Shown here piece after piece: positions 18,101 to 35,696 of a stretch of 64,000 nt of DNA. The DNA is from Candidatus Xenobia bacterium (GTDB taxonomy: Bacteria > Vulcanimicrobiota > Xenobia > Xenobiales > QWHO01): NCBI GenBank assembly GCA_045863235.1, contig BTUM01000037.1, forward strand, positions 1-64,000. The letters run 5' to 3'. Positions within the stretch are counted from its first letter, which is position 1. The number at the start of each line of letters is the position of its first letter. Below the pieces are notes generated by a model. The model was not told where the DNA came from and ran no database searches. It was given only the letters and a program-made list of their open reading frames with translations. The translations under genes were made by a program, and so were the position numbers.

Positions 18101-18480
18101 TGGAGGAGCTTGGGACCCTTGGGCAGCTCGACCACGCGCGAGGCCGATGGAGCCTTTTCGGGGACGAGCTCCGTTGGAGGCTGCCTCGGGGTCGCGGGAG
18201 GAGGGGCGGCCGGGCCATCTTCCTCAACAGGCGCCACTGGCTCGTCGAGTTGAGCGAGGGCCGTCGGGACGGACGTCGTCGCCGGGACCGGGGCCACTTC
18301 GGCCAGGTCGGCTGGAAGCTGTTTCTTGTCAGCCTTGCGTTCGTTCCGGGGTCTGGCGGTCTGGGTGAACTGATCGCTGGGAGCGACCGCCTCGGGCTCT
18401 CCCGTGCCCTGCTGCTGACCGGAAGCAGGCTGAGGCAGGCCCGAAACCATCGGGTCGAGCGCGCGCAGCCTCATATCCAT
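15094..18480 (-). CDS. secA: SecA-family translocase ATPase, atypical paralogue with long disordered N-terminus
   Basis: EMKTGEGKT, VTVNDYL, DEVDEILIDEARTPLILS, GLHQALEAKE, GMSGTA, ATNMAGRGVDI, ERHESERID, RQG; no C-terminal Zn finger; start 18480 or 18474. Confidence 0.92.
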   Translation of the reverse strand: MDMRLRALDPMVSGLPQPASGQQQGTGEPEAVAPSDQFTQTARPRNERKADKKQLPADLAEVAPVPATTSVPTALAQLDEPVAPVEEDGPAAPPPATPRQPPTELVPEKAPSASRVVELPKGPKLLQILSGAIRASKRIGLGLLSVVGTDPLKQVQAEQKKVNDLEPGLDAAIAARASELRAAGQTGDVDLEAARQIVQGKTVEFRRRLADGESLDSMKVEAFAVARKAAQVVLKMRPYDVQVQGGLAMTEGRISEMKTGEGKTLTAIMPLYLYGLTGKGAHLVTVNDYLVKRDFEQMKPAFEFLGLTVGCVHEGVENPDKKKAYACDVTYITNHSLGFDFLRDQSAREPELRVQRAPHFALVDEVDEILIDEARTPLILSSLSEAAGDEHRIFDILVKSLEPGRDFKTNQKDHYAYVTDEGLDRVECMLAAVDADEKKGQAALKLRSLPPGTPMEEVQAASRAFDQAHKASQAAQKLVQAQNLLRTATTEEEKQQAQAEIDSLRGAAPSYSLYSLDNVRRVFFLQNALMANALYEKDQDYLAANDQVQIVDVFKGRTMDGRRFTNGLHQALEAKEGVTIQPYQRTQASITYPDLFRRYPHLAGMSGTAMSAASEFHEAYKLDVVAIPTNKPKDLKTDHDVIFRTMQEKFEFVADLIEELYKEGKPVLVGTRSIPANKYLSHLLAKRGIYHQVLNAERVQDNTDEEARILADAGRSGMVTLATNMAGRGVDIKPDLVNYKLLAMKAEVACKRGEFVVVDVEKPRDAEQVRDWLASDSLPTQILAEGEAIQDGATGIVIRIKPTDPPPEGSAHFDGRTEEFETGGLHLIMTERHESERIDLQLIGRPARQGQPGYGRALLSLEDELLQYFGGPKLAEFFDAMGIPPGKGVSDERLDEMVREAQRAVEGKWYEVRKDTTKYGEVLNKQREAFSASRDKLVNREANVGDLVLDWLPRSLAHQAFYSHAEREWVAKGSQEDEVVEVPGSMKADAVKQALTELSQKFGVPFDVDLGKKKKVTEEELEELLRPQVEAHYQAAAARMPAEDLAFYQRKVLLDVADEGWMNHLENMEALRHGIGMEAYAQKDPWIQYQHRAFDMYQGLLQAVQYEASSEIFRQMLIEAREQQTKAS

Positions 18481-18512
18481 CGCGAAAGGCAAGACTTTCC
18501 CAAGATGCTGCT

Positions 18513-18556
18513 ATCCTAGCATGACAATCCACTCGGATTTGTAAACAGGATGTTAA
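18513..18556 (-). promoter_or_regulatory. Class B direct-repeat promoter TTAAC-N6-TTTAC-N22-TAGGAT
   Basis: Same architecture and the same TGCTAGGAT extended -10 as 19875-19918. Confidence 0.65.
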
Positions 18557-18582
18557 CGGCCAGACAAGGAAGGGCACGGCCC

Positions 18583-19878
18583 ATGAGTTTGCAGCGGGGC
18601 TCGGCTCTGATGATGGAGGGCCGCTACGACGAGGCTTTGAGCGCCTTCGAGGCGGCTGCCCACAGCCAGCCGAAGGCGGCCGGGCCGCTCATCCAACAAG
18701 CTCTGTGCCAAATGGCGCTGGGCCAGCCCGGGCCGGCCAACGACCTGTTGACCCGGGCCCTGGAGCTCGAGCCGGACAACCCGGCTCCTCACCTCTTCGC
18801 TGGCCTCTGTCGCTCGGACCTCGGCGACCATGAAGCTGCCGAGCTCTGTCTGCAGACCGTCAAGAAGCTCTCTCCCGACCACCAGGCGGTGGACACCGTG
18901 CGGGCCATCCTCAACCTGCGCCGGGGCAACCTGGAGAAGGCTGTGGCCTACCTGGGCGGCCATCCCGACCTCTCCCTCTCCTCCCCCATCATCAGCCGCC
19001 TGGTACTGGAGGTCGAGCGCCGCCTGCTACCGGCCGAGATCCCTCTGTTGCGCCGGGCTAAAGCTCGCATCCTGTCCCCGGATGAGGAGAAGGCGCCTCC
19101 CTCTCCCGGCCTGTTCGGATTGGCCCGCTCCATGGGCGCCTGGCGCGCCCAGTCGTCGGGCCGCAAGCTGGTCGAGAAAGCCATGCGCACTCCCCCCGGC
19201 TCCGAGCGCCGCAGGGGGCTGCTCGATCGGGCCGTGACCCGGTTGCGCGAGGCGCGCGATGCCGACCCCTCCCAGTTTCGGGCCGACTTCTACCTGGCCG
19301 AGGCGCTCCTTTACGCCAGTCGACCAGGCGAAGGAGCGGAGGCGCTGCGCGAGAGCCGCGAGGGATTCCTGATCTCCTGGCAGCACGAAGGCGAGAATCC
19401 CTACCTGCTCTACTACCTGGGTCGGGTCACCCTGCTCCTGGGGGAGGTGGAGGCCTCCATCGAATACTTCGAGCGCGGGCTCTCCAAGTTCGCCAAGTTT
19501 CCCGAGGCGCACTACGGCCTGGGTCAGTGCTGGCTGCTCAAGGGCGACGCCAACCGGGCTCGGGATTACTTCGCCCTGGCGCTGCGCTCGGATACTTTCA
19601 TCATGCGTGACCGCCTGTTCGAGTTGATCAGCCGGTACGAAGGTGACCGGGGCTCACTCGACCGGTCCATGCCCGAGTGGGAGCCGGAGCCAGAGCTCGC
19701 TCTGACCGACAGCGAGCCTGCCTCGGAGGACCCGCCCGGGCCGGGGCCGCGGGCCCCCCAGCCGGAGCCCGGCACCCATTCGGAGCCGGACACAGAGAGC
19801 CAGCCTGAGCCAGGGCCCGAGGCCCACCCCGTTGAGAGGGCTTCAACCTCCGAGGCACCCTCGGAGAAGCCCCTGTAA
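18583..19878 (+). CDS. Tetratricopeptide repeat protein
   Basis: Multiple TPR units (ALELEPDNP, FPEAHYGLG); acidic Pro-rich tail; AAGGAAGG RBS. Confidence 0.88.
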   Translation: MSLQRGSALMMEGRYDEALSAFEAAAHSQPKAAGPLIQQALCQMALGQPGPANDLLTRALELEPDNPAPHLFAGLCRSDLGDHEAAELCLQTVKKLSPDHQAVDTVRAILNLRRGNLEKAVAYLGGHPDLSLSSPIISRLVLEVERRLLPAEIPLLRRAKARILSPDEEKAPPSPGLFGLARSMGAWRAQSSGRKLVEKAMRTPPGSERRRGLLDRAVTRLREARDADPSQFRADFYLAEALLYASRPGEGAEALRESREGFLISWQHEGENPYLLYYLGRVTLLLGEVEASIEYFERGLSKFAKFPEAHYGLGQCWLLKGDANRARDYFALALRSDTFIMRDRLFELISRYEGDRGSLDRSMPEWEPEPELALTDSEPASEDPPGPGPRAPQPEPGTHSEPDTESQPEPGPEAHPVERASTSEAPSEKPL

Positions 19879-19918
19879 CATCGAGGTAACAAGATTCGAC
19901 CCCGCCCCGTGCTAGGAT
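19875..19918 (+). promoter_or_regulatory. Class B direct-repeat promoter GTAAC-N6-GTAAC-N22-TAGGAT
   Basis: Perfect 11-bp-period repeat plus TGCTAGGAT. Confidence 0.65.
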
Positions 19919-19959
19919 GGCCCCCGGGGAAATCTGCGGGTGAAAGGATCCAGGGGCTC

Positions 19960-21582
19960 GTGCAGCTTTCGGCTTACAATTCCAGTCTGGCGTTCCGGCT
20001 CCCCAGCCCGGCCGCCCGCGAGGAATCCAGTGCTGCCCAGATGGATCTGCCTTTCCTGGCCCTCTCCGGTGGAGACAGCTACAACGGCGTGGTGGAGGGT
20101 ACCAACGAGCGTCAGAACCCCTTCATCGTCGTCCCCAAGGACCTGCTCACCCGGGCCAAGACGCCCAACCAGGTGGTGCAGGACCTCTCCCGCCTCAATG
20201 TCCCGGTCAATGCAGAAATTCCCCTGATCAACGGCTATACGGTGGTGATGAACGAGGACGAGCGCCGGCGCGTCGAGCAGGCCGGCTATCAGGTCATGCC
20301 CGACCTGTCGGACAAGTTCCTCTTGCCCAGCCCCTGGGAGCGCAAGCCCGAAGAGAACGTCGAGACCATCGCCACCGAGCCGGCCACCCCTACCACCCCC
20401 CGGGCAACCCTGACCGAGCCGCGCTACGCCTCTCCCCTGACCCAGCAGTTCACCGGTCGCGGCGTTGGGATCGCCATCATCGACACGGGCATCTATCCCC
20501 ACCCCGACTTCAACTTCCCCCACAGCCGGATCGTGGCTTTCCAGGACTTCGTCAATGGCAGCACGCTCGCCTACGACGACAACGGCCACGGTACCCACAC
20601 GGCCGGCGATGCGGCTGGCAACGGCTTTCTGTCGGAAGGCCTCTATCGGGGGGCCGCTCCCGAGGCCAACCTGGTGGGCATCAAGGTGCTGGACAAGAAT
20701 GGCAACGGCACCACCTCCAACATCCTTAAGGGGATCAACTGGGCGGTCGAGAACAAGGAGCAGTACAACATCCGGGTCATCAACCTCTCGCTCGGCTCGA
20801 GCCAGCGTTGGGCGCATCGCCGTCAGGACCCCATCCAGCAGGCGGTGGAGAAGGCGGTGGACGCGGGCATCGTGGTGGTGGTCTCGGCTGGCAACGAAGG
20901 CCCCTATCCCGGCACGATCAGCGCGCCGGGCGACAACCCCCGCGTGATCACGGTGGGCGCCCTGGACGACCGCAACACCCCCGACCCCTCCGACGACCGC
21001 ATTCCGTCCTTCTCCAGCCGGGGCAAGTCGGACACCATGAAGCCCGACCTGGTGGCTCCCGGCGAGGGGATCATCGGGCCCAACGCTCCCGGCACCATCA
21101 GCGAAGCCACCGCCCGCAAGTACGGGGCCGTCCAGAAGACCCTGTCCTGGCTCGACAGGATGCGCGACGAGGAGCTGGTGCACGTGCCCGAGGATACGCT
21201 GCGGCTGATCGGCCTGAATCCGAGCTCGATCCAGCGTTTCAAGAACTCCCCCCAGACCGCCCGCTCGGAGATCAACCGGCTGATCGAGACCACCAACCGC
21301 CTGCCCATGGTGTCGAGCAACTACCTGGGCATGCCGGGCACCTCCATGGCCGCTCCCATCGTGGCCGGGGTGGTGGCCCAGGTGCTGGAGGCAAACCCGC
21401 ACCTTTCCCCTGACGAGGTCAAGCAGGTGCTGCGCCAGAGCGCCACCCAGCTTCCCGGCTACGGTCGCGAGGCCCAGGGCTCGGGCGCGGTCAACCCGGA
21501 CCGAGCCATCGAGCTCGCTCTGCAGAAGCTGGATGAGGGCGACCGGAACGGCCAGTTGCACCTGCCCCTGGAGCAACTCTGA
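19960..21582 (+). CDS. S8 subtilisin-family serine protease (AprX-like), no Sec signal peptide
   Basis: Catalytic triad IIDTGI, HGTHTAG, GTSMAAP; oxyanion SAGNEG; ~70-aa insertion before the catalytic Ser. Confidence 0.92.
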   Translation: MQLSAYNSSLAFRLPSPAAREESSAAQMDLPFLALSGGDSYNGVVEGTNERQNPFIVVPKDLLTRAKTPNQVVQDLSRLNVPVNAEIPLINGYTVVMNEDERRRVEQAGYQVMPDLSDKFLLPSPWERKPEENVETIATEPATPTTPRATLTEPRYASPLTQQFTGRGVGIAIIDTGIYPHPDFNFPHSRIVAFQDFVNGSTLAYDDNGHGTHTAGDAAGNGFLSEGLYRGAAPEANLVGIKVLDKNGNGTTSNILKGINWAVENKEQYNIRVINLSLGSSQRWAHRRQDPIQQAVEKAVDAGIVVVVSAGNEGPYPGTISAPGDNPRVITVGALDDRNTPDPSDDRIPSFSSRGKSDTMKPDLVAPGEGIIGPNAPGTISEATARKYGAVQKTLSWLDRMRDEELVHVPEDTLRLIGLNPSSIQRFKNSPQTARSEINRLIETTNRLPMVSSNYLGMPGTSMAAPIVAGVVAQVLEANPHLSPDEVKQVLRQSATQLPGYGREAQGSGAVNPDRAIELALQKLDEGDRNGQLHLPLEQL

Positions 21583-22571: not shown

Positions 22572-23675
22572 TCAGAGTTTCTCCAGGGTCGCCCCCCGGT
22601 AGTAGTGGCGCAAGATGGCCTGGTAGCCCATGTGCTTCTCCCCCATCACCAGCGCCCCCCACTGGCATAAGCCCACCCCGTGGCCCCAGCCCCCGCCCTG
22701 AAAGTGCAGGCTGACCGGCCTGCCGTTTTGCTCCTTGACACTCATCTTGCAGCGGGTGCTGCGCAGCTCGCGGTAGCCCAGGATGCGTCGAAAATCCTGG
22801 CTCTTCTCGCGATACTCATGCCCCTGATCGTCCTTGACGGTGATGAAGTTCATCCGGCCTGACGGATCGTGGCCGCTGACCACCACCGAGGTGATGGTCC
22901 CCAGAGGCTTGCCATCGGCGGCAAAGCGCTTGCGCACCGTCTCGATGGGGAACGAGCGGCTCCAGTGCGAGCCGGCCGTTCCGGCGCAGTAAGGGTCGGG
23001 AACGCCCTTGATGAAGGGCACCTTGGGACCGAAGACGGGCTCGGAGTCGGAGGTGTGCCCGCCGCAGTTGGAGCTGTAGTAGGCTTTCAGGACGCGGCCG
23101 TCAGCCCCCTTGAGCACCTGACCCCGGGTGTCGTCGAGCGCGCCGCGCGAGGAGAACGACTCGCCGTCCAGGCCTGCGTAGACCTGGTCCTGGTCGGTGG
23201 CCACCAGGTCGTACTCGCTGTCGCGCGGGTCGCCGAGCAGGTAGACGGCGTAGGTGCGGGCCGCCACCGCCAGGGCGCGCTGGGTGGGTCCGGGCCAGTC
23301 AGCGGGGATCTCGCCCCCCACCACCCCGGCCAGGTAATCCTCGAGGTTGAGGACGTTGACCGCCACCAGCTTGCCCTCGCGCTCGAAGACGCGCAGGTAG
23401 CCTCGATAGCCGCGCCCGTTCCAGTAGAAGACGCCCGAGGCGGGCACGAACATGACGTCCTTTTCCGGAAAGCCCGGACGGAAGGTCACCTGTCCCTGGC
23501 CTTTGCGCAGCACCTGGGCGCCGGCGGTGGACTTGAGGGTGTAAGCATCCGACTCGACCGTGCAACTCGAGCCCTTCTCCTGCAGAGCGATCCGCACCCG
23601 AGTCTGGGCCAGCGTGAGCTGACTGAGCAAAAGGAACAGCACCAACGTCAAAGGGCAACAATTCTTTAAAGCCAA
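22572..23675 (-). CDS. SpoIID/LytB domain peptidoglycan lytic transglycosylase
   Basis: YRG, LEDYLAGVVGGE, AVAARTYA, DQVYAG, GWGHGVGLCQWGA, ILRHYY; TTG start after GGAG. Confidence 0.92.
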   Translation of the reverse strand: MALKNCCPLTLVLFLLLSQLTLAQTRVRIALQEKGSSCTVESDAYTLKSTAGAQVLRKGQGQVTFRPGFPEKDVMFVPASGVFYWNGRGYRGYLRVFEREGKLVAVNVLNLEDYLAGVVGGEIPADWPGPTQRALAVAARTYAVYLLGDPRDSEYDLVATDQDQVYAGLDGESFSSRGALDDTRGQVLKGADGRVLKAYYSSNCGGHTSDSEPVFGPKVPFIKGVPDPYCAGTAGSHWSRSFPIETVRKRFAADGKPLGTITSVVVSGHDPSGRMNFITVKDDQGHEYREKSQDFRRILGYRELRSTRCKMSVKEQNGRPVSLHFQGGGWGHGVGLCQWGALVMGEKHMGYQAILRHYYRGATLEKL

Positions 23676-23697
23676 TTTCAGGGCTCCGAGGTAGATT
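23666..23697 (+). promoter_or_regulatory. Class A direct-repeat promoter TTAAA-N6-TTCAG-N10-TAGATT
   Basis: One of five sites with identical spacing. Confidence 0.65.
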
Positions 23698-23709
23698 AAG
23701 GTCGATACC

Positions 23710-25626
23710 ATGCAAAATCTGACCGGCGGCATTACGGGAAAGTTCCTCGGTTCTCCTACCTTCGAGGAGGCCAGGCGCAAGCTGCGCGAGGCTGGGCAGC
23801 GCGAGGAAGCGCGCGGCCACGAGCTCGATGCGCGCGGCCGCGACCGCGTCGAGCAGGGCTCTCAGGATGCCGAGCAGGCCGCCGAGGACAGGCAGCAGGC
23901 GCTGAACGACCGGGCCGCCGCCCAGAAGCAGTGGAAGAAGGCCGAAAAACTCCAGGCCAGCTCGCTCAAGAAGATTGCCGATGGGATGGGCCTCATCGGT
24001 CTGGCCGCAACCCTGCAGGCAGCCGCCCAGGCCCGCATCAATGAAGGGTTGAGCCAGCAGCAGCAGGCAGGCCAGCTCAAGGATAAAGGTCTCAAGGACG
24101 TCTCCAACGGACTCGCTCGCCAGGAGAAGGCCGAGCAGGGCCAGCAAGCCCAGGTCGAGCGACTGCAGCAGGCCTTTGCCGGCGAGGCTCAGGCCGAGGC
24201 TCTGAAAGACGAGGGGCGCGCCGGCGTGGGCCAGGGGCTGCGCCAGGAGGCTCAGGCCGAGCGTTTGCAGCAGAGCGGAGTCGAGACTCTCGCCTCTGGT
24301 CTGGCCGAGCAGCAGGCGGCCGAGCAGATCAAGGACGCCGGCCGGGAGAAGATCGGACGGGGCATCGACCAGCGTAACCTGGGCGGGGTCTACCTCGAGC
24401 AGGCCGCCCTGGGCCACCAGCAGGCCAGCCAGTTGCAGGGAGAAGCCGGTGCCAAGCGCACCCGGGCTCAAGCTCTGGAGATCCTGGCTCAGGCCGCCCA
24501 GCAGCGGGCCCAGCAGGCTTTGCAGCAAGTGCAGGCCCTGGTGCAGCAGGTAGCGCGCTTGACTCAGGAATCGACGCAGGCCAGCGGAGCCGCCGCCACG
24601 CTCGAGTCGGAGGGCCAGCACTTGAGCAGCCAGTCGCGCTGCTGGGGCCAGCGGGGCCAGCAGAACATCGCTCACGGGCGCTATCTGCAGCAGTGCCCCT
24701 TCCAGTATTGCGCCGGCCTGGAGCTCGAGCGCCAGGGCTTCGCCGAACTCAACTACGCCAACCAGCTGTGGGCCCAGGCCCAGGCCAAGCAGGGCCAGGC
24801 CAGCCAGCAGCGCCAGCTGTCCGAGGCCAGGCACGCCGAGGCTGAGCAGACTCGCTTTCGGGCGGCAGCCCTGGCCGGTCAGGCCTCGGGCGACTTTGCC
24901 CGGGCCAACCAGCAGCGCCAGGAAGCCGGGGGCCTGGTGCAGGCGGCCGCGGCCCAGGAGTTGCGGGCCGGCGAGATCTCCCTGCAAGCTCACCAGCTTC
25001 AGCAGCAGGGGCTGGGGCTGCGCGAGCAGGGCCAGCAGCTGATCGATGCCGGGCGCACCGAGGTGGCCACCGGTCAGGCCCGCGAAACAGCCGCTCAGGG
25101 CCAGATGACCCGGGGGCTGGGTCAGTTCGACCAGGGCCGGGCCGACGAGCAGCAGGCCCGCAATACCGAGTTGGACGGGCTGGGCAAGATCCAGCAGGGC
25201 TTCACCCAGGAAGCTCCCTTCCGGGCCGAGGAGCGGGACGCCCTCAAGGAGTTCCGCGCCTGGCGAGCCAAAGAGAAGACGGCCCACAGTCGCCAACAGA
25301 TGGGCCTGGGCAAGCTCGAGCAGGGCCTGGAGCAGTCCCAAGCTGGTCGCCAGGAGGGCGACGCCGGAGTGGCCGATTTCCGCGAGGGACAGAAAGTCGA
25401 GCGGCGAGGCGCCTCCAAGGTGGAGGCCGGTCAGGAGAAGCTCACTCAGGCCCGCTCTGCCCTGGATCAGGCCCGCGCCCGGGCCGCTGCGGCCCAGGAT
25501 GAGTTGCGCCGGGCCGAAGAGCTCGAGCGCCAGGCCCAGCGCGAGATCGAGCTGGGGCAGTCCGAGCAGGCTGCCGGCCAGGTCATCGCCGGCAAGGGGC
25601 GAGCCTACCAGCAAGCCGCCGGATAA
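23710..25626 (+). CDS. Giant Ala/Gln/Gly-rich heptad helical protein (paralogue 1)
   Basis: Gly/Ala heptad periodicity, almost no Pro except a central CPFQYC turn; ends homologous to 26887-28755. Confidence 0.85.
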   Translation: MQNLTGGITGKFLGSPTFEEARRKLREAGQREEARGHELDARGRDRVEQGSQDAEQAAEDRQQALNDRAAAQKQWKKAEKLQASSLKKIADGMGLIGLAATLQAAAQARINEGLSQQQQAGQLKDKGLKDVSNGLARQEKAEQGQQAQVERLQQAFAGEAQAEALKDEGRAGVGQGLRQEAQAERLQQSGVETLASGLAEQQAAEQIKDAGREKIGRGIDQRNLGGVYLEQAALGHQQASQLQGEAGAKRTRAQALEILAQAAQQRAQQALQQVQALVQQVARLTQESTQASGAAATLESEGQHLSSQSRCWGQRGQQNIAHGRYLQQCPFQYCAGLELERQGFAELNYANQLWAQAQAKQGQASQQRQLSEARHAEAEQTRFRAAALAGQASGDFARANQQRQEAGGLVQAAAAQELRAGEISLQAHQLQQQGLGLREQGQQLIDAGRTEVATGQARETAAQGQMTRGLGQFDQGRADEQQARNTELDGLGKIQQGFTQEAPFRAEERDALKEFRAWRAKEKTAHSRQQMGLGKLEQGLEQSQAGRQEGDAGVADFREGQKVERRGASKVEAGQEKLTQARSALDQARARAAAAQDELRRAEELERQAQREIELGQSEQAAGQVIAGKGRAYQQAAG

Positions 25627-25701
25627 CTTCGCACGCCGTTGCAACTGACTTAAGGCGCCGCGCGTCAGAGGATCCCGCTCGGGGTTCTGGAAAGCCCGCC
25701 C

Positions 25702-26841
25702 ATGCGGCTCTTTGAGGGCATCCGCTTCGATCGCAACGAACTGGCCGGGGCTTTTGGCGACCTGGGCACCGTGCTGCCCCTCATCGTGGGGATGATCCTG
25801 GCCGCCCGGCTCGACTGCGCCAGCGTGCTGATCATGTTCGGGCTGATGCAGATTTTCACCGGACTGCGCTACCGGATCCCCATGCCGGTTCAGCCCCTGA
25901 AAGCCATGGCCACACTGGTGATCGCCCAGAAGCTGACCGGCTCCATCCTTTACGGTGCCGGGCTGGCCATCGGCATGGTCATGCTCTTCTTGACCATGTC
26001 AGGCCTGTTGGCCCGGCTGGGGCGCGCCATCCCCACCACGGTGGTGCGCGGTCTGCAATTTGGCCTCGCCCTGCAACTCGGCATCCTGGCGCTGCGCGAG
26101 TACGTGCCTTCGGCCGGTCCCTCGGGGATGGCCCTGGCCCTGGTCGCCTTCCTGGTCGGCCTGGCCTTCCTGGGCAATCGGCGCATCCCGGCGGCGCTCC
26201 TCCTGGTCGGGCTGGGGGCGGCCTTCGCCGCCTTGAAGCTCCAGCCAGGCCAGGTGACCGGCGCCTTCGCTTTGCACCTGCCGCAGTTTCACGTGCCCGG
26301 CTGGTCCGACATCGCCCAGGGCTTCCTGCTGCTGGCCATCCCGCAGCTGCCGCTTTCGCTGGGCAACTCCATCCTGGCCACCCGCCAGGTTTCCCACGAT
26401 CTTTTTCCCGAGCGCGCGGTGGACCTGAAGACCATCGGGCTGACCTACTCATTGATGAACCTGGTCAATCCTTTCCTGGGCGGCATCCCGACCTGCCACG
26501 GGGCGGGTGGCATGGCCGGGCACCACGCCTTCGGCGGGCGCACCGGGGGCTCGGTGGTGATCTGCGGGCTGGCCTTCATCGCCGTGGGGCTCTTCCTGAG
26601 CCAGGGCTTCGCAGCCATGGTGGCGGCCTTTCCTCTGCCCGTGCTGGGGGTCTTGCTCTTGTTCGAGGCCCTCAGCCTGATCGGGCTGACCCGGCTGGCC
26701 ACCTCCTCGCGGGGCGACTTCCTGGTGGTGGCTCTGGTGGGGCTGCTGGCGGTTGGCCTCCCTTACGGATTTCTGATCGGCATGCTGGTGGGCACCCTGG
26801 TGGTGGCCCTCTCGCCCCATCTGAGCTACTTCCGTACATGA
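25702..26841 (+). CDS. Molybdate/sulfate transporter (MOT1-like)
   Basis: ELAGAFGDLGT, PMPVQPLKA, PTCHGAGGMAGHHAFGGRTG. Confidence 0.9.
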   Translation: MRLFEGIRFDRNELAGAFGDLGTVLPLIVGMILAARLDCASVLIMFGLMQIFTGLRYRIPMPVQPLKAMATLVIAQKLTGSILYGAGLAIGMVMLFLTMSGLLARLGRAIPTTVVRGLQFGLALQLGILALREYVPSAGPSGMALALVAFLVGLAFLGNRRIPAALLLVGLGAAFAALKLQPGQVTGAFALHLPQFHVPGWSDIAQGFLLLAIPQLPLSLGNSILATRQVSHDLFPERAVDLKTIGLTYSLMNLVNPFLGGIPTCHGAGGMAGHHAFGGRTGGSVVICGLAFIAVGLFLSQGFAAMVAAFPLPVLGVLLLFEALSLIGLTRLATSSRGDFLVVALVGLLAVGLPYGFLIGMLVGTLVVALSPHLSYFRT

Positions 26842-26873
26842 AAAAGCCCACCGCTCGGGGCGGTGGGCTTTTT
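26841..26873. terminator. Bidirectional intrinsic terminator
   Basis: AAAAAGCCCACCGC-tcggg-GCGGTGGGCTTTTT between convergent genes. Confidence 0.9.
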
Positions 26874-26886
26874 CCGAGGTCTACCC

Positions 26887-28755
26887 TCAGCTCTTCTGGC
26901 CGGCGATGTAGCCCGGAATCGCGTTGGAGAGCTCCACGTACTGGTTGCCCTTCTCTTCGATCACGCGGCCAGCCGCCTCGCGGTTGGTGCCTTCCTGGAT
27001 GTCGCGCTCGCCGGTGCGAACCGACTCGGTGCCCCGCTTGACCTGGGAGTTGCCCTCGTCCACTTTCTGTTTGCCAGCGTGCTCGGCGGCGTCGCCCGCG
27101 TTGACCTCGGTGAGACCACCAGCCTGGTCGGCCCGACCGGCGGCTTCCTCGACCTGACCGGCCACGATCTTGTCCAGAGCGGCGGTGCGGACGGCCTGGG
27201 AGGCTTCCTGGTCCTGACGGGCCTGACCCACCAGGTCGAGACCCTGCTGCTGGACATCCAGCACCTGGGCCATCAGGTTGACACCCGCGGTCAGCTGCTG
27301 CAGAGCCACCAGGCGCTCCTGGCGGGCGGTGCCCACCTGGGCCTGACCCTGACCGATGGTACCCAATCCGGCTTCCTGCTCGGCGGCGCCGGCCACTTCC
27401 TGATCCAGACCCTGGCGGATCTTGTCCAGGCTGGCTGCCATCTGCGACTTACCGGCGTTGCGGCGAGCCACGCCGTCGGCGACCTCCTGGTTACCCTGGG
27501 TTTCCAGAGCGGCGCTCTGGGCCAGGTGCTGCTGGGAGGCCTGAGCGGCCTCGGCGGCGGCGGTGCGGTCGGCGGCGGCCGACTGGAGCAGCGCGGCGGC
27601 TTCACCTTCGAGGCGGGTGGCAAGAGCGGTCAGGTAAGCGGCGTTCTCGGTGTGGTGCGAGGCCTCAGCGGTGAGCTTCTCGGACCGGTGCGCCTGCACC
27701 TGAGACTCGTGGTGACGCACGGTGGCCACGTCGCGGGTCAAGAGGCCCTCGGTGACGGTGGCGGCGCCCTCGTCCACGTAGCCCGGGATGTCCAGCAAGG
27801 TCGTGCCCGCGCTGGCGTCGATGGCGGCCTTGCGGGCCAACAGGTCGGACAGCTTCTGGGAAGTCTGGCTCTTGGCGTTCTCTACGATCGACTCGGCCTG
27901 GCGCTGGGCCCCTTCCTGGGCGCAGTGAGTGGCGTGAGTGCGAGACTCGGCAGCCTCGGCCTGCTTGGCGGCGGCCTCGGCCTCGGAGTCGGTGGCGCGG
28001 GCGGTCAGTGCCTCGGAGCGGGCCTGGGCGTCCAGGCCTTTGCGCTTCTCGGAGTGGGACTGGCGCAGGTGGCCGCGGCCGTCGCGGATCAGGGCGCGAC
28101 CGGCGTCGGTCTCGGCCATGGCCTGGCGGAACTCGCCCACGCCCTGGTCGACCGTGGTGGCCCCGGCCTGCTCGGTGTTGAATCCGGCCGTCAGAGCGGT
28201 CAGACCGCTCTCGACCAGCGCCTGACCCTGTTTGGCCTGCTGCAACTGGGCACCGAAGTCAGCCGACTTCTGGTCCACGAACTGGCCCACGCTCTCTTCC
28301 AGCACCAGCGCCGTGGCCAGCACCTGGGCTCCGCCCTGGGCAACCTGCTGAGCCTCTCCGGCCGAGTTCAGTCCGCCCTGGAACTCCTGAATGCCCTGCT
28401 GCTCGTTGGCCCCGCCAGCGCTCTCGCGATTCAGACCGTTGACGATCTGCTGCTGACCGGCCAGCTGGCGCTCCAGGCCGGTCTGAATCTGGGCCTGGCC
28501 TTCGGCCGCTTTCTGGTTGCCATCGGCGATGGCCTGGTTGCCAGCCTGGCGTCCTGCCTCGCCGCGCTGCTTCTGGTCCGCGCCGCTGGTCTGCATGTCG
28601 CGGCCGCGGGCGGCCTCTTGCTCACCTTTCTCGCGGAGCTGGCGGGCTGCTTCGGCCGGATCCTGCTCGTCGATGATGGCTCTCTTCTGTTTGCCGGCAG
28701 CGCTCTGCGACGCGGTGTAGACGCTGGCGGTAAAGTTGGTACTCAGGCTGACCAT
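26887..28755 (-). CDS. Giant Ala/Gln/Gly-rich heptad helical protein (paralogue 2)
   Basis: Same composition, central IPGY turn; GGAGG 10 nt before ATG 28755. Confidence 0.85.
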   Translation of the reverse strand: MVSLSTNFTASVYTASQSAAGKQKRAIIDEQDPAEAARQLREKGEQEAARGRDMQTSGADQKQRGEAGRQAGNQAIADGNQKAAEGQAQIQTGLERQLAGQQQIVNGLNRESAGGANEQQGIQEFQGGLNSAGEAQQVAQGGAQVLATALVLEESVGQFVDQKSADFGAQLQQAKQGQALVESGLTALTAGFNTEQAGATTVDQGVGEFRQAMAETDAGRALIRDGRGHLRQSHSEKRKGLDAQARSEALTARATDSEAEAAAKQAEAAESRTHATHCAQEGAQRQAESIVENAKSQTSQKLSDLLARKAAIDASAGTTLLDIPGYVDEGAATVTEGLLTRDVATVRHHESQVQAHRSEKLTAEASHHTENAAYLTALATRLEGEAAALLQSAAADRTAAAEAAQASQQHLAQSAALETQGNQEVADGVARRNAGKSQMAASLDKIRQGLDQEVAGAAEQEAGLGTIGQGQAQVGTARQERLVALQQLTAGVNLMAQVLDVQQQGLDLVGQARQDQEASQAVRTAALDKIVAGQVEEAAGRADQAGGLTEVNAGDAAEHAGKQKVDEGNSQVKRGTESVRTGERDIQEGTNREAAGRVIEEKGNQYVELSNAIPGYIAGQKS

Positions 28756-28809: not shown

Positions 28810-28865
28810 AGTATGGCATCACGAACTGAAACCATGCTTAAACGGGCTGTTGACAGGCTGTTAAC
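28810..28865 (-). promoter_or_regulatory. Class A promoter TTAAG-N6-TTCAG-N10-CATACT with upstream class B-like TTAAC-N6-TCAAC
   Basis: Four phased half-sites; GTTAACAGCC/GTCAACAGCC direct repeat. Confidence 0.7.
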
Positions 28866-28910
28866 TTGGCGCCAGAAGGGTCCTCAACGAGCCCGAGGAA
28901 GAGGGGGGCC

Positions 28911-30308: not shown

Positions 30309-33300
30309 TTAGGTGCGCTCCATCACGCGCAGGAAAGCGTCGATCAACACCGGGTCGAACTGGGTCCCCGAGCCGTCGCGCAGCGTCTGCAGTGCATTCT
30401 CGACACTGAACGGCTCCCCATCGGGGCCTCCGGCCAGGAGATCCTCGAAGTGGTCGGCCACGGCGATGATGCGCGAGGCCAGCGGGATGTCGCGCCCGGC
30501 CAGCCCATCGGGATAGCCGTCGCCGTCCCAGCGCTCATGGTGGCTGCGGATGATCGGTCCCAGGTGTTTCAGCGAGCCGATCTGGTTCATGATCTCCTCG
30601 CCGTAGATGGGGTGCTTCTTGAGCTCCTCCAACTCGGCGCTGGTCAGCTCGTCGGGCGGCTTGGCCAGGATCTCCTCGGGCACCTGAATCTTGCCCACGT
30701 CGCGCAGGATGGTGGAAGCGTGCAGAGCGCGCAGGTTGAGCGGACCCTGCTCTTTGAGGAAGTCGGCCATCTCCTCGATCTTCTCGTCGGAGGCACCTCC
30801 CAGAGCGATGCCCACCTGACCGATGTCGATCAGCATGGCGCCGTCTCGGATCTGCTTGCGGGTGCGGAAGTCGTTGATGCCCAGCTCGTCGGCCATGGCC
30901 ATGGCGTGCTGCATCACCTTCTCGGAGCGCTCGGTGGATTGCCCGCCCATCTTGAGCATCACGCCCAGGCTGTGCAGAGCAGCATCTTCGTCCAGGTCCT
31001 GGAGGTCGCCGAGCTCTTTCTCTTTGTTGGCCTTCTTCAGCAGGCTGGTGACGGCCGAGGCGGCGTGGCGGTTGGCGACCGACTCGAGCTGCACGGAATC
31101 CATCTCCGACGCTCCCAAGGTGGCTGCGCGATGGGTTTCCTGAGCCTCGGCCTCCTCGGCGCCCTCGGGCTGCATGGCCGCCATGATGGCTGCCAGTGCC
31201 GTATTGGTCGAATTCTGGGTCTGAGCCGGACCCCGACCCAGACCGTGGGCCGAGTGACGGTCGGCGCCGCGGTCATCGCCGCCCTGCCCCTGATCGCCCG
31301 AGCCAAAGCCAGACTCTTGTTGCTGGGACTGCTGGTTCGCCTGGGCGCCCTGAGCCGAAGCTTGCCGGACGGTGCCGGCCAGAGTCGGCGCGAGACGATT
31401 GGCGGCCCCGGTGGTGGGCTCGGAGTGTTTGTCAAAGCGAGCGTCCTCGGATCCGAATGCCTGGCGCTCGTTTCGCTCGGCGGCCCGCCACTGGGTCAGG
31501 GTCTCCTGACGCAGATCCTGGGTGGGCTCGCGTCGACGCTCGATGGGCGAGATGGGCAGGATCCCGTCCTGCTGCGAGTCCAAAGCCATATCCTCGGAGG
31601 AGGCTGCAGCCGCCTCGCGCACATCGGAAGAGGTGCTGCTGGCTTGAGTGGTCACGCGCTGCGGGGTGGGTCGCAACCCCAGTTGGATGGCCGAGGTGCC
31701 GGCCTCGGCGGGCGCCTGGGTTCGCTCGCTGGCCAGCTCGCGCTCCACCGCTGCGGCCGCCGGCTGAGAGGCAGCTTGGATCGCCTGCGGGGCCAGCGGG
31801 CCGGCCAGGTTGGGACGCACGGGCGCAGGGGGCAGAGTGGGCGTGGCGGGAGCCTCGGCCAACGGCTCTCGGGCTGTCGGGGCCGTGGAAGCCCGCGCGG
31901 TCTCCGGCTCGGGAGCCGAAGGCGCCGGAGGGGCAGTGGGAAGCGTGGTCGAGCGCCGCTGGGCGGCGGCCACCGCCGGCGGACCCTCGGGCGGCCCCAC
32001 CGGCGCGGTCATGGCCGGGCGCACCTCGGCGGCCGCCGGGCGATAGGCCTCGCTGGCCGGTCCAGCCGGGGCGCCCAACGGGAGCGAAGTGCCGGGCGCC
32101 GTTCGGGGCCGCTCGCCGGCGAAGGCAGCACTGGTTCCAGATGGACTCACGGAACGACCGGGCCCTTCGGAACGAGGAGAGCCCTCGCTGCCCCGAGGGG
32201 CGCCCGGGGCCGCGCTCTCGCCCGTGCGGGCGGTCTCGACCGCTGAGACCCGCTGGGGGTCGGTGCGACTGGTCTCGCTGGTGGCCTGCACGGCCACCGA
32301 GGTGCTCCGGCCGGCGTCCTCGCCGCGCCGGGCAGGCTCGGCCGCGCTGCCCTCGTTACGGGGAGCTGTGTTGGCGCGGGCCGGCTCACCGGTTACGCTG
32401 GCCCGTCTTTCGGTTTCTTGACCGCTCGGAGGAGGGGCGGCAGCGCGGGCAGGCTCTTCGGCGGTCGCTCCGCGACGGCCTTCGGTCGGTCTGGAGGGCT
32501 CACCGGACTGCTCGGACCGGTTCTCGGCACGTGCTTCCGCGCGTGCTTCGCTGCGCGGCGCATCGACCCGGGACGGTTCGGAGGCGTGCGATTCCCCACG
32601 AGTCTCGGAGCGAGCCTCGCGGTTCTCGCCTCGCACCTCGACTCGGGCTTCACCTCTGGCTTCGGAGCGTGCCTCAGCTCGTGCCTCGGCCCGGGCTGGC
32701 TCGACCTCACGGGCGTCGCTGCGCTGTGCGTCCGCCGCGCGGCTGGCCTCTTCCACTCGGCGAGGTTCACCACTGTTCTCTCGACGAGTCTCGGCGGCAG
32801 GCGCCGGGGGCTCATTGCGCGGGGCCTCCGCCTGGCGGACCTGCTCGCTGCGCTGAGGCTGTCCCTCGCTTCGTGGCCCTTCGGACGCTCGGACCGGCTC
32901 TGCCTCGGAGCGGGCGGGCTCGTTGCGCGGAGCCTCGGCCTGCCGGGCGACCTCGTTACGCTGCCCCTCGGAGCGGGCCGGCTCGTTGCGCTGGCCCTCG
33001 GTCGGACGGGCCGGCTCACCCTCGGCGCGGGCTGGCTCGTTGCGTGGAGCCTCGGCCGGGCGGGCGGGCTCATTGCGTTGGCCTTCGGCGGGACGGGCCG
33101 GCTCGGTGGCACGGGTCTGCTCCCCACGTGGTGCCTCAGCTTCAGACCGGGCCGCCCGGGTCTCGGGCTGGTTGTTGCTGGCTGGCGCCTCAGTTGGGCG
33201 CGGTCGCTCATCACCACGGTTAGCGGGCGGCTGGGCCGGGGCCGGACGCTCCTCGCCCGTGCGTCCGGTCGTTTCCACCGTGGTCGTCATGCGCTCCCCG

Positions 33301-35561
33301 GTGGGGCTCTGGACGGTCGTGGTGGTGCGCTCGGTTCCGCCTCCCTCGGAGGTCTCCGACACGATGCGCTCGCCGGTCGGCAATTCAGTGGTCTCGCGCC
33401 GGGTCACATTCCGGTTCTCCCCCGAGCGCGGCTCGGGCGTGCCGGGTCGATTCTCGTTCTGATTTTGATTCGGGTTGCGATTGGGCGGCGCGGGCGCGGC
33501 CGCGCGCGGCTCGGTTTCGCCGGGCTTGCCTTCTACGGTCGTGGTGATGCGCTCGCCGGTGGCCGTGGTCACGGTCGTGGTGGTGCGCTCGTTGCCTCCC
33601 TCGACTCGGGCCGTCTCGCTGGTGATGGTCTCGCCGGTAGGCAGCTCGGTGGTCTCGCGGCGGGTGACGTTTTCGGCCCGGGGCGCTTCGGTGCGAGCAG
33701 GCTCGGGCGCGGGAGGCCGATTCTGGTTGTTTTGATTGGGGTTGGGCAAGGTGGCCCGAGGCTCGGTCTCGCCGGGCTTTCCTTCCACGGTGGTGGTGAT
33801 GCGCTCGCCAGTGGCCGTGGTGATGGTGGTGGTGGTGCGCTCGTTGCCCCCTTCGACCCGGGCCGTCTCGCTGGTGATGGTTTCGCCGGTAGGCAGCTCG
33901 GTGGTCTCGCGGCGGGTGACGTTCTCGGCCCGGGGCGCTTCGGTGCGGGCAGGCTCGGGCGCGGGAGGCCGATTCTGGTTGTTTTGATTGGGGTTGGGCA
34001 AGGTGGCCCGAGGCTCGGTCTCGCCGGGCTTTCCTTCCACGGTGGTGGTGATGCGCTCGCCGGTGGCCGTGGTGATGGTGGTGGTGGTGCGCTCGTTGCC
34101 CCCCTCGCCCCGGGAGGTCTCGCTGGTGATGGTCTCGCCCGTGGGCAGCTCGGTCGTCTCACGGCGGGTGACGTTGCGGTTCTCCTCGACCCGCGCAGCC
34201 GGCTGCGGCTCGGGGGTCCGGGCAGTCTGCTGCTGTTGCGGCAGTGGAGCCGGGCGGGCCTCTTCCGAAGGCTTGCCGACGGTCTGGGTGGTGGTGACGA
34301 TCTTCTCGCCGGTCGGCAGGGTGATCGTCTCGGTGCGCGTGTTGCCTTTGGCTTCTTCCGCTTTGGGGGGCGGCGCAGGAGCTTCGACCTTCTCGACCCG
34401 GGTGGTGGTCGTCGTCGTGCGCGTCTCGCCGGTGGGCGACTCGACCGTGGTGGTGGTCCTGGTCTCCTCGGGCTTTTTCTCGTCGGCCCGGGGAGCGAGC
34501 AAGGCTGGCCTCGGACTCTCGGGCGGCTTGCTCTCGGTTGTGGTGGTGACCTTCTCACCGGTGGCCAGAGTGACCGACTCGGTGCGGTTGGCCGGCTTCT
34601 TCTCGCCTTCTGCTTTAGGCTGCTCGGGTTTCTGCTCGTCCTTGCGCTCGACCCGGGTCTCGGTCCTGGTGCTCGTTTCCCCGTTGGCGTCCGTAACCGT
34701 CTCGGTGGTCTCGGTCACGACACGCTCTTCCTCCGGCGCGGCCGCCTCGCGACGGTTCTCAGCCGTCTTGGCACGAGCGGTCTTCTCCTCGCTGGAGCTG
34801 CTGGTGGCCGAGGCCGCCTTCTCCGTCTGCGGCTTCGTCGGGGCCACCCCGGGTCGGACCGTTTCCGTGGAGCTGGCCTCCGACCGGATCACCCTGCCCT
34901 TCTTGTCCTTCTCGGCCGTGGTGACTTCCACGCTGGGCAATTGGCCCGGTTTCTCAACGATGGCCACGGTGACCTCGGAAGTCTTGCCATCGGGACCCTT
35001 GACCTCGACCTTGGTGGCCGTCTGGGTGGTGGTGGTGCCATCGGCTTCCACGACCTGCGTCTTGCTCTGGGTCGTGGCCGCCCCTCCGGGCGCGTCGGTG
35101 GAGCCGGTCTTCACTTCCTCCTTGACCATCTGGCGTCCATCGTCGGTGGTGACTTCCGTGCGCGAGCTGGAGGAACCGTCACTGTTCTTGGTGGTTTCCG
35201 AGCGGGCGCTCTGGACCGTGGTCTGGCCGGTCATCAGAGACTTCGTGCTCTCGATCCTGACCGAAGCCGGTGGCAGCTTGTCCTTGTCCTTCTCCTTGGG
35301 CGCCTTCGTGGGATCGATCCCGAACATGCGAAGGACCGTATCCTCTTTCTTCTTGGCCTCTTTCTGCTCTTTCTTGGACAGCGGCTTTTCGGTTTTGCTG
35401 CCCGGGAAGGCTCCCTCGAGCGAGGTGATGGAGGTCTTGATGACGTCCTGCAGCTCGTTGAGCGACTTCTCGACGCTACCCCCCTTGCTCGACGTCGACG
35501 AGGTCGTCGTCGAGGTCACGGTGGTGGTCGTGTTCTTGATGTCCTTCGAAGGCTGCGCCAA
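30309..35561 (-). CDS. Giant low-complexity repeat protein with C-terminal degenerate HD-GYP domain
   Basis: HPIYG, HHERWDGDGYPDGLAG, IPLASRIIAVAD, GTQFDP; HD dyad replaced (LIDIG, LRDVGK); TTG start after GGAGG. Confidence 0.9.
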   Translation of the reverse strand: MAQPSKDIKNTTTTVTSTTTSSTSSKGGSVEKSLNELQDVIKTSITSLEGAFPGSKTEKPLSKKEQKEAKKKEDTVLRMFGIDPTKAPKEKDKDKLPPASVRIESTKSLMTGQTTVQSARSETTKNSDGSSSSRTEVTTDDGRQMVKEEVKTGSTDAPGGAATTQSKTQVVEADGTTTTQTATKVEVKGPDGKTSEVTVAIVEKPGQLPSVEVTTAEKDKKGRVIRSEASSTETVRPGVAPTKPQTEKAASATSSSSEEKTARAKTAENRREAAAPEEERVVTETTETVTDANGETSTRTETRVERKDEQKPEQPKAEGEKKPANRTESVTLATGEKVTTTTESKPPESPRPALLAPRADEKKPEETRTTTTVESPTGETRTTTTTTRVEKVEAPAPPPKAEEAKGNTRTETITLPTGEKIVTTTQTVGKPSEEARPAPLPQQQQTARTPEPQPAARVEENRNVTRRETTELPTGETITSETSRGEGGNERTTTTITTATGERITTTVEGKPGETEPRATLPNPNQNNQNRPPAPEPARTEAPRAENVTRRETTELPTGETITSETARVEGGNERTTTTITTATGERITTTVEGKPGETEPRATLPNPNQNNQNRPPAPEPARTEAPRAENVTRRETTELPTGETITSETARVEGGNERTTTTVTTATGERITTTVEGKPGETEPRAAAPAPPNRNPNQNQNENRPGTPEPRSGENRNVTRRETTELPTGERIVSETSEGGGTERTTTTVQSPTGERMTTTVETTGRTGEERPAPAQPPANRGDERPRPTEAPASNNQPETRAARSEAEAPRGEQTRATEPARPAEGQRNEPARPAEAPRNEPARAEGEPARPTEGQRNEPARSEGQRNEVARQAEAPRNEPARSEAEPVRASEGPRSEGQPQRSEQVRQAEAPRNEPPAPAAETRRENSGEPRRVEEASRAADAQRSDAREVEPARAEARAEARSEARGEARVEVRGENREARSETRGESHASEPSRVDAPRSEARAEARAENRSEQSGEPSRPTEGRRGATAEEPARAAAPPPSGQETERRASVTGEPARANTAPRNEGSAAEPARRGEDAGRSTSVAVQATSETSRTDPQRVSAVETARTGESAAPGAPRGSEGSPRSEGPGRSVSPSGTSAAFAGERPRTAPGTSLPLGAPAGPASEAYRPAAAEVRPAMTAPVGPPEGPPAVAAAQRRSTTLPTAPPAPSAPEPETARASTAPTAREPLAEAPATPTLPPAPVRPNLAGPLAPQAIQAASQPAAAAVERELASERTQAPAEAGTSAIQLGLRPTPQRVTTQASSTSSDVREAAAASSEDMALDSQQDGILPISPIERRREPTQDLRQETLTQWRAAERNERQAFGSEDARFDKHSEPTTGAANRLAPTLAGTVRQASAQGAQANQQSQQQESGFGSGDQGQGGDDRGADRHSAHGLGRGPAQTQNSTNTALAAIMAAMQPEGAEEAEAQETHRAATLGASEMDSVQLESVANRHAASAVTSLLKKANKEKELGDLQDLDEDAALHSLGVMLKMGGQSTERSEKVMQHAMAMADELGINDFRTRKQIRDGAMLIDIGQVGIALGGASDEKIEEMADFLKEQGPLNLRALHASTILRDVGKIQVPEEILAKPPDELTSAELEELKKHPIYGEEIMNQIGSLKHLGPIIRSHHERWDGDGYPDGLAGRDIPLASRIIAVADHFEDLLAGGPDGEPFSVENALQTLRDGSGTQFDPVLIDAFLRVMERT
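33250..34180 (-). repeat. Intragenic 252-bp (84-aa) tandem repeat, about 3 near-identical copies plus a degenerate one
   Basis: NVTRRETTELPTGETITSET...ERTTTTITTATGERITTTVEGKPGETEPR repeated; identical DNA at 33736 and 33988; ends approximate. Confidence 0.9.
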
Positions 35562-35696
35562 AGGGGAATCCTCCCAAAACGTCGTTCCGATAGCGTACCA
35601 CTCGATTGCCAAGCGAGCGTGAAGAGGGTGGTAAACTTTGTTAAAAGTTTGCTGCCAGGTTGTTAAATTCTCTGGACGGGGCGTAGAAGCCTTTCG

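Follow-up and report, generated by a model that had tools for sequence, protein, structure and literature searches.

We analysed a 64,000-nucleotide stretch of DNA (the window) from contig BTUM01000037.1 of a Candidatus Xenobia bacterium (assembly GCA_045863235.1), in which two genes, here called A and B, encode unusually long helical proteins. Gene A (positions 23710..25626, plus strand) encodes 638 residues, comprising a short leader, an N-terminal helix (residues 16-326), a turn (327-332, Cys-Pro-Phe-x-Tyr-Cys) and a C-terminal helix (333-637). Gene B (26887..28755, minus strand) encodes 622 residues, or 625 if an in-frame ATG three codons upstream is used, with a putatively disordered leader (1-32), an N helix (33-321), a turn (322-326) and a C helix (327-611). 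The B protein ends in a tail (26890-26922, minus strand) that carries a conserved Ile-Pro-aromatic motif behind a linker whose length varies (by as many as about 20 added residues) and resembles a docking peptide. Each gene occurs once in the 8.36 Mb genome, which is 97.6% complete. A first-pass annotation had described A and B as homologous hairpins; their lengths, coordinates and motifs were confirmed on recount, and the homology was borne out by profile-profile comparison (probability 99.9, E 1.4e-34), by which A and B are paralogues. From the anchors L25, P330 and Y633 of A and L40, P324 and Y606 of B, we reproduced exactly the annotated arm lengths of 305 and 303 residues in A and 284 and 282 in B, a difference of three heptads per arm. 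Each protein has three prolines, one of which forms the turn. The strongest periodicity in both is 6.98-6.99 (Gly/Ala/Ser), and their period-7 small-residue signals (42.3 for A and 32.7 for B) rank first and second among the 5569 predicted proteins of the genome, the next being 10.1. No transmembrane segment was found in A or B, the highest 19-residue hydropathy being 1.09 in both, and the annotated lack of a transmembrane segment and signal peptide held.

AlphaFold2 models of A (helices 16-326 and 333-637; pLDDT 85, pTM 0.35) and B (helices 33-321 and 327-611, with low-confidence patches mirrored; pLDDT 75, pTM 0.37) both bend once, at the proline, as the annotated antiparallel hairpin with a central Pro turn requires, and show neither disorder nor a parallel coil lacking a turn. 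The N termini of both are modelled with low confidence. The top fold match of both models was a chemoreceptor hairpin, aligned symmetrically about the turn (A 173-487, B 167-481) at a generic Z of 13.9; fold searches otherwise returned only generic coiled coils, viral structures included. In the A and B profiles, one heptad position is 88-93% Gly, Ala or Ser, and this small stripe reaches at least 80% at 70 of 86 positions in A and 68 of 80 in B. The stripe is zoned, with Gly at the base and Ala near the tip, and the zones of the two arms are mirror images about the turn in both proteins. Matching hydrophobic and polar layers between the arms, read four residues on, gave a best register of i+j = 667 in A (r 0.79, best of 29 registers) and 655 in B (r 0.86, best of 28), values reached by 0 of 300 permutations. 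Conserved cross-arm pairs are Q145-E522, Q187-E480 and K208-E459 in A and E111-Q544 and E153-Q502 in B; together with the mirrored zoning, these pairs support the hairpin. Models and sequence patterns give good support for each protein forming a single antiparallel helical hairpin, closed by a tight Gly/Ala zipper about 45 nm long. The layout of the rod is likewise well supported: its base is a Gly-rich shaft made up of 21-residue layers, followed by an Ala-rich neck and then by a specialised tip. At 0.1485 nm per residue, the arms measure 46 and 45 nm in A and 43 and 42 nm in B, close to the 45 and 42 nm first estimated for the rods, and 21 residues correspond to 3.1 nm.

Outside the zipper, A and B carry invariant Lys/Glu residues every 42 positions and a further, partly hydrophobic stripe, which may be available for contacts between chains. 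Complex prediction with A(81-580) and B(75-573) twice gave a score of 0.01 against a mark of 0.32, which speaks neither for nor against binding. Layers of the A N arm match those of the B C arm at register 661 (r 0.79) with favourable charges; this match is not significant alone, because the 21-residue pattern is common to both proteins and the charges of the reciprocal contact are unfavourable.

The lengths of the arms are conserved to the residue. We found arms of exactly 305 and 303 residues in 21 of 22 A orthologues and of 284 and 282 in all 22 B orthologues, although median identity is only about 22%; these sets include near-identical sequences and were aligned with a raised gap penalty, and realignment at the default penalty left the arm lengths unchanged. 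The match goes beyond chance, because the four numbers recur across orthologues and the two proteins have the top period-7 signals in the genome. In a second set, which shares some genes with the first and comprises 21 A and 11 B rows, length deviations were confined to the tip or its vicinity (+4 to +29 in A, +3 in B) except in one A shortened by a stop. Indels in homologues sit at the tip or shorten both arms, an outcome that does not refute the annotated hairpin. That the length of A and B is under strict selection is well supported. Profile autocorrelation peaks at 21 and 42, so the 21-residue difference between A and B equals one internal repeat unit. In the C arm of A, the best-scoring placement of the extra 21 residues is amino acids 579-599 (25444..25506, plus strand). 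The N-arm counterpart probably lies at about amino acids 68-88 (23911..23973, plus strand), a position set by mirror symmetry rather than by alignment score, which is nearly flat over about A57-165. Counted from the tip, the layers of the two proteins coincide, which sets the extra residues of A near the base.

The tips of the two proteins differ in character. The tip of A (24634..24768, plus strand; amino acids 309-353) is aromatic and Cys-rich and is the sole insertion site in full-length A homologues; across 43 A sequences, 129 of 190 cysteines and about a quarter of the aromatic residues fall in this window. The tip of B (27766..27843, minus strand; amino acids 305-330) is a conserved amphipathic LADLLAxKAAID..IP segment that lacks Cys. 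'Variable tips', as first annotated, thus describes A; the tip of B ranks among its most conserved parts. In family f14 (L101, L109 and L110), each genome has one A-type gene with an enlarged, Met/Phe/Pro-rich and strongly hydrophobic tip, and no B was found in these three genomes.

A weak match to the A profile in a small genome proved to be an intact 282-residue gene, which we call mini-A. Mini-A genes of 276-282 residues (L181:1501-2346 of G020; L182-L189) are present in nine of ten genomes of the small-genome genus g3. They match the A profile over about A257-441 (E 7e-18 to 6e-9), and their alignment has a probability of 96.5 with A and 7.5 with B. With arms of 75 and 98-119 residues, mini-A has lost the entire Gly shaft from both arms, roughly but not exactly symmetrically, and retains the neck and tip behind a longer, export-like leader. 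This trimming of both arms supports the hairpin and suggests that the neck and tip of A are its minimal working part. We also noted a conserved Cys-Gly-x-Cys motif immediately ahead of the mini-A N helix. B was not found in mini-A genomes, and a search for a mini-B in five small genomes, run without a positive control, found nothing. Shaft and B are lost together in these genomes, which hints that B may serve the shaft; the full-length A without B in f14 is at odds with this idea. A tetratricopeptide repeat (TPR) gene by Pfam (18550..19878, plus strand; promoter box, described below, of 13.8 bits) lies 3.8 kb from A, and its orthologue adjoins A or mini-A in family f3 at all nine mini-A and all four full-length loci. 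It matches the LcrH/SycD model at E 1.8e-11, below the cut-off and as one of 91 TPR matches, and as a candidate chaperone it is a lead only.

To define how A and B are controlled, we applied motif discovery to 33 orthologue upstream regions, which yielded the direct repeat GTTAACA-N4-GTTAAC. Upstream of A lies a degenerate copy (23653..23670, plus strand; 15.0 bits, rank 154/4864), with a putative -10 element, TAGATT, 21 nt past it (23692..23697, plus strand). B has three half-sites at 11-bp spacing (28838..28866, minus strand; 18.1 bits, rank 47/4864) and a putative extended -10, TGnCATACT (28810..28815, minus strand). The first-pass annotation had given the two genes a shared 'class A' promoter: a motif common to both stands, and the label itself came with no definition. 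Using a matrix built without the four sites of the family itself and a cut-off of 14 bits, we found sites in 190 of 4864 upstream regions versus 4 in shuffles, and a TAnnnT element lies 21-22 nt downstream of 86 of the 287 best sites. The top-ranked box precedes a rod/hook-like gene of the type III export cluster described below, and the 81- and 473-residue genes beside that cluster are included. The 11-bp direct repeat suggests an OmpR/PhoB-type activator; of 14 genes checked, none stood out as an autoregulated member of the OmpR family. A sigma-28 promoter was rejected, as the conserved motif is a direct repeat with a sigma-70-like -10; a generic sigma-70 scan gave 0 sites.

We then examined the products of this regulon. 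Among 40 proteins scanned, picked from the 62 top-scoring genes of at least 150 amino acids, hydrolases account for 16, proteins of no family for 20 and others for 4. The hydrolases are six subtilases, four clostripains, a phospholipase D, a GDSL lipase, a glycoside hydrolase, an esterase and two other peptidases, one of them below the cut-off; by eye, we also recognized glycine-zipper-like membrane proteins. Signal-peptide-like starts occur in 8 of 182 regulon proteins versus 430 of 3967, and the Ser/Pro/Thr/Ala/Gln share of regulon starts is 0.43 versus 0.33. As judged from these promoter sequences, the conclusion that A and B are switched on together with type III export genes and many hydrolases is well supported. 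One sludge RNA-library contig spans 26893-28791, near-exactly B between its predicted promoter and terminator, and starts 19 nt downstream of the putative -10; both are weak evidence, and give a weak hint that B has a stand-alone transcript. These RNA data are contigs only, chosen with this region, which cannot rank expression, and coverage gaps in A are uninformative. A 515-residue regulon protein, P0013 (G000:C28:17703-19250), has no Pfam match, is 45-57% identical to proteins in 22 of 61 relatives and is by eye what we take to be a pentein-type deiminase look-alike. Examples of box-carrying genes in the window are 964-1938, 18550-19878, 19909-21582 and 30309-35612, the last (minus strand) encoding a 1750-residue protein with long Thr/Glu/Pro/Arg low-complexity repeats and a C-terminal HD-GYP-like domain.

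The genome encodes a complete flagellum-derived type III export cluster (C27:54348-79219; L084 and L085), which contains flhA, flhB, fliR, two fliQ, fliP, fliO, two fliN and fliK, together with a lytic transglycosylase gene, fliJ, fliI, fliH, fliG, fliF, fliE and two rod genes. Its FliK-family ruler matches PF02120. Flagellin, FlgH and an SseC-family translocator were not found in this genome, and secretin matches lie away from the cluster, the two strong ones in operons that we take to be type II secretion-like and type IV pilus-like. The export genes are followed by three identical 81-residue genes and a 473-residue gene ending in the same motif; 47 of 61 genomes, most of them with multiple copies, encode relatives of the 81-residue protein, which a language-model search likened to HrpA pilin clusters (0.91; family on 23% of members), a lead only. 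The cluster probably encodes an undescribed Hrp-like injectisome. It also holds two fliG-like genes, and the cytoplasmic domain of FlhA/SctV occurs in many stand-alone or fused copies besides the full-length gate (for example, C80:28174-29157), with seven matches here and up to 16 in relatives. The export gate is present in 61 of 61 genomes and LpxC in 60 of 61. Genomes without full-length A or B keep the export gate, LpxC and mostly the 81-residue subunit, which argues that A and B are accessory and hence related to the target. A classifier of leaders trained on regulon starts placed all 11 export-type genes at the 83rd-98th percentile, with medians at the 98th percentile for B orthologues and the 86th for A orthologues.

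The distribution of A and B was examined across the phylum. Single-query searches matched A in 31 and B in 31 of 61 related genomes, and the A profile, counting cross-hits, hit 44 of the 301 genomes of the phylum and none of the 207 from family f15. By locus, 44 genomes of the class divide into 25 with both genes, 1 with A only (65% complete), 3 with B only and 15 with neither at full length, so that both genes are present in 25 of the 29 class genomes holding either. In a tree built over 441 tip-registered columns from 23 A sequences and 21 B sequences, two clades separate (support 1.0 for B and 0.44 for A), each of which follows family structure; median identity is 21% among the A sequences, 23% among the B sequences and 18% across the two groups. 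By this pattern, the genes are chromosomal and vertically inherited. No matching co-occurrence profile was found among flagellin, the subtilases, LpxC and one regulon protein. Among other records, a G018 match to B was dropped for its six stops, and what the B profile picked up in G002 is the A gene of that genome. A homologues are broken by one stop codon in L102 (G065:C41) and by an assembly gap with a frame change in L019 (G019:C98). Two loci labelled Burkholderiales (L077 and L078) carry A at 92% identity although the genus sits with Eremiobacterota, and these assemblies are probably mislabelled.

Searches for known relatives of A and B returned little. Pfam matched 0 families for A and B; of 26 B members scanned, two gave a weak match to one unrelated family and the others gave no match. 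The A alignment matched no NCBIfam family, the B alignment gave no PHROG match for 25 of 26 members and one weak unrelated match, tblastn of A against 50,697 phage records found no match, and neither profile matched a solved structure in the PDB by sequence. HMMER with A against 1.84 billion representatives returned ten matches: eight A-type proteins, one 67-residue fragment and one coiled coil of an ABC permease, judged spurious. The ESM Atlas gave no lead (best feature score 0.78, best TM 0.31). Word-indexed protein searches with B, the B alignment and longer A forms were empty; these say little, because known orthologues were missed as well. Relatives of A and B outside the phylum were not found in the libraries searched. 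Likewise, the portions of the literature available on this phylum with type III, injectisome, flagellar or predation systems, in which subscription papers are thinly covered, do not describe these proteins. In these comparisons no characterised family or solved relative of A and B was found, and the functional model proposed below is plausible.

We propose that A and B are rods exported by the type III system that oligomerize into a spike or conduit spanning the envelope of prey, with the aromatic, Cys-rich tip of A as the working end. To this reading as a whole, including the idea that one exported rod contains both proteins as subunits of ancient paralogous origin, we give slightly less than even confidence. 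A and B would pass out of the cell in unfolded form via the flagellum-derived system without flagellin, with their apparently disordered N-terminal leaders serving for export. Outside, the second hydrophobic stripe and the conserved Lys/Glu/Gln layers would hold neighbouring hairpins laterally together in a bundle or tube, probably of mixed A and B, at the end of a pilus of the 81-residue HrpA-like subunit. The tip of A would then engage the target-cell membrane, with the fixed shaft length matching the target envelope; the rod would replace the canonical translocon, which was not found in this genome, and let proteases, lipases and glycine-zipper proteins reach the prey. Lineages with a different target would keep only the tip, as mini-A. 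We assign the working end to the A tip because of its enrichment in Cys and aromatic residues, the hydrophobic tips of f14 and the retention of neck and tip in mini-A. If the bases align, the tip of A stands 3.1 nm, or one bilayer, past that of B. A bolder version of this proposal, which we consider rather unlikely, is that A and B form an undescribed antibacterial type III translocon: a tube of about 45 nm made of Gly/Ala-zipped hairpins, secreted by the flagellin-less machine with its Hrp-like pilus, that crosses the whole Gram-negative envelope, seats the A tip in the inner membrane of the prey and conducts the products of the roughly 190-gene regulon, with mini-A as the version for single-membrane targets. 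The host is probably a predatory bacterium.

Several observations weigh against an exported spike or conduit. Export, oligomerization, A-B contact, membrane engagement and the prey are inferred from sequence and models. The leader classifier is modest (AUC 0.75) and places the A leader of this genome only at the 50th percentile. The promoter box also lies ahead of type IV pilus-like, transporter and housekeeping genes and is thus not specific to secretion, and a reverse-complement control of the scan still gave 126 sites. Neither A nor B is encoded within the export cluster, and no operon partner is conserved beside them. Three f14 genomes have a full-length A-type gene alone, so the pair is not obligate, and in G031 (97% complete) B is present and A was not found. 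The hydropathy peak of the tip has a family mean of 0.17 in A and 0.49 in B, and most members lack a transmembrane hairpin. A parallel reading of the arms scores r 0.75 in A (versus 0.79 antiparallel) and 0.68 in B (versus 0.86), and layer matching alone therefore does not fix the orientation of the arms. Predation in this phylum is a genome-based prediction for a marine family (PMC9259500), and the accessible parts of that source list a type III system as putative only, in a supplementary table.

The first-pass annotation had offered a filament subunit, a ruler or a spike/translocator part; the evidence leans towards a spike or conduit over the other two, short of proof. The same export could also build a surface stalk, spacer or pilus-tip extension that pierces nothing and presents the A tip as an adhesin or sensor at a fixed distance. 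The regulon and leader evidence applies equally to such a stalk, the tip has no true transmembrane segment, its variation in length and sequence recalls a recognition element, and the closest folds include the stalk-like hairpins of colicin receptor arms and PrgA (generic Z). However, a passive stalk would rarely need a residue-exact length across a phylum, the conserved charged layers of the outer stripe suggest a defined assembly, and A and B lack a membrane or wall anchor; we consider a stalk unlikely. Still lower in our estimation is a cytoplasmic structural or membrane-remodelling polymer, akin to PspA/ESCRT-III or intermediate filaments, that is merely co-regulated with the attack programme and in which the 21-residue unit sets the filament stagger. 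The 21- and 42-residue periodicity would permit staggered packing, A and B have no Sec signal or transmembrane segment, the box controls non-secreted genes too, and the A leader of this genome is not clearly export-like. Against this polymer, B and most A orthologues begin with leaders like those of export substrates, clustered cysteines at the A tip would suit disulphides outside the cytoplasm, mini-A has a longer export-like leader and no shaft, and the PspA/ESCRT matches are short and generic.

Two further proposals start from the paired lengths of A and B. A soluble two-component pore-forming toxin released into the medium (YaxAB/XaxAB or ClyA-type), not borne on a pilus, would account for two homologous, co-regulated, all-helical hairpins of slightly different length, and AhlB is among the fold matches (Z 9.4 and 8.8). 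The AhlB alignments have rmsd values of 51 and 8 Å and rank among generic coiled coils, solved structures include no sequence relative, no hydrophobic foot or head domain is apparent in A and B, and the genes do not form an operon, making such a toxin very unlikely. Molecular rulers setting the length of a rod, pilus or other appendage would fit the invariant length, the two length classes and the co-regulation with the export cluster. Type III rulers work as unfolded chains that differ in length and carry a C-terminal switch domain, whereas A and B are folded hairpins lacking such a domain; the cluster already has its FliK-family ruler, and the export system is kept in genomes without full-length A or B. 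We regard this role as scarcely probable.

Returning to the exported spike or conduit, we compared A and B with known systems. Chemoreceptor hairpins (T. maritima 2CH7; Tsr 1QU7) are likewise long antiparallel two-helix hairpins, and the A and B models align to them at Z 13.9 over 309 residues (rmsd 6.4 and 5.8 Å). Chemoreceptor length classes differ by whole heptads in both arms, and such paired indels are present in A/B. The likeness drawn in the first-pass annotation holds for geometry and nothing beyond it: identity is 7%, the Z is within the range for unrelated long helices, A and B are twice as long, with a Gly/Ala core every seventh residue and no transmembrane or HAMP part, and Pfam and solved-structure searches found no MCP signalling domain (MCPsignal PF00015). 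The stripe shares the pattern of the small-X6-small motif (Gly-X6-Gly/Alacoil), in which, in the accessible text of PMC12541321, small residues at a and bulky ones at d and e give tight left-handed antiparallel packing. That motif is described there for membrane helices of 20 residues, whereas A and B are soluble and charged with about 40 heptads per arm, and it is a packing motif, not a family. The type III translocators SctE/SctB (IpaB/YopB class) are also two proteins with a long coiled coil and a leader, putatively disordered in A and B, share the proposed role at the end of a conduit and gave a generic fold match (IpaB fragment 3U0C, Z 10.7 and 9.4). They have transmembrane segments, whereas A and B are symmetric hairpins of fixed length encoded outside the export cluster, and neither matched SseC (PF04888) or its relatives. 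Another comparison is the Tc toxin channel, a helical trans-envelope tube. Podophage ejection modules (T7 gp14-16; Ar-KM gp41-43) form a trans-envelope tube whose length is limited by periplasm or envelope width, according to the available portion of a preprint (bioRxiv 10.64898/2026.05.18.726046). Unlike these tubes, to which A and B have no sequence or specific fold match, A and B are length-constrained per residue. In Myxococcus xanthus, a 'needleless' T3SS* without secretin or translocon is needed, with the Kil pilus, for prey lysis (PMC12075869, consulted as an excerpt), whereas the system here keeps flagellar rod genes and a multi-copy needle-like subunit. We treat the phage ejection, Myxococcus and predatory-family parallels as analogies, not as membership.

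A and B were also compared with other candidate families. They have no Pfam match to flagellin domains (flagellin/FlgL), and the flagellin family, present in 16 of 61 genomes, does not track A/B. SMC/Rad50/RecN was rejected: the models of A and B are all helix with a turn of 5-6 residues, no Pfam match was found and only the coiled coil aligns. PspA/Vipp1/ESCRT-III was rejected as well, with no Pfam or NCBIfam match, two helices only in the models and matches of about 120-180 residues at Z 9-10. ClyA/YaxAB/Hbl-type proteins gave no sequence match and only generic fold matches; the A tip is aromatic, and in f14 hydrophobic.

Even for Myxococcus, the excerpted text of PMC12075869 leaves open how a type III system could bring proteins past two membranes and a wall into a bacterium. 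A and B are concrete, purifiable candidates for such delivery, and the natural length classes (A, B and mini-A), with a 21-residue unit that can be added or removed, provide a built-in test. Even if the function differs, a soluble Gly/Ala zipper of about 40 heptads per arm whose length is exact to the residue is unusual as a natural design. The promoter box and export cluster, in turn, outline a likely attack programme for a phylum with almost no cultured members.

Finally, we examined the surroundings of the two genes. Between A and B lies a gene for a MOT1-family molybdate transporter (25702..26841, plus strand; Pfam PF16983, E 1.2e-49), which is a passenger, as it was not found between A and B in other genomes. 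A terminator-like hairpin (26848..26868) with T runs on both strands lies between the convergent stops of the transporter and B. It is supported by its position and not by count, because 6 such sites were found in the region versus 3.4 expected; in two studies, RNA contigs stop at 26893 and 26911, which is weak evidence. In orthologous loci, A and B are often convergent with unrelated genes in between, and their neighbourhoods show housekeeping synteny only (hgmA adjoins B in 4 of 20 regions). Elsewhere in the window, 15094-18492 (minus strand) encodes a SecA that is extended at its N terminus by a long Pro/Ala/Glu-rich stretch and also has internal insertions; this SecA may be accessory, because a second secA-like gene is present on C1.

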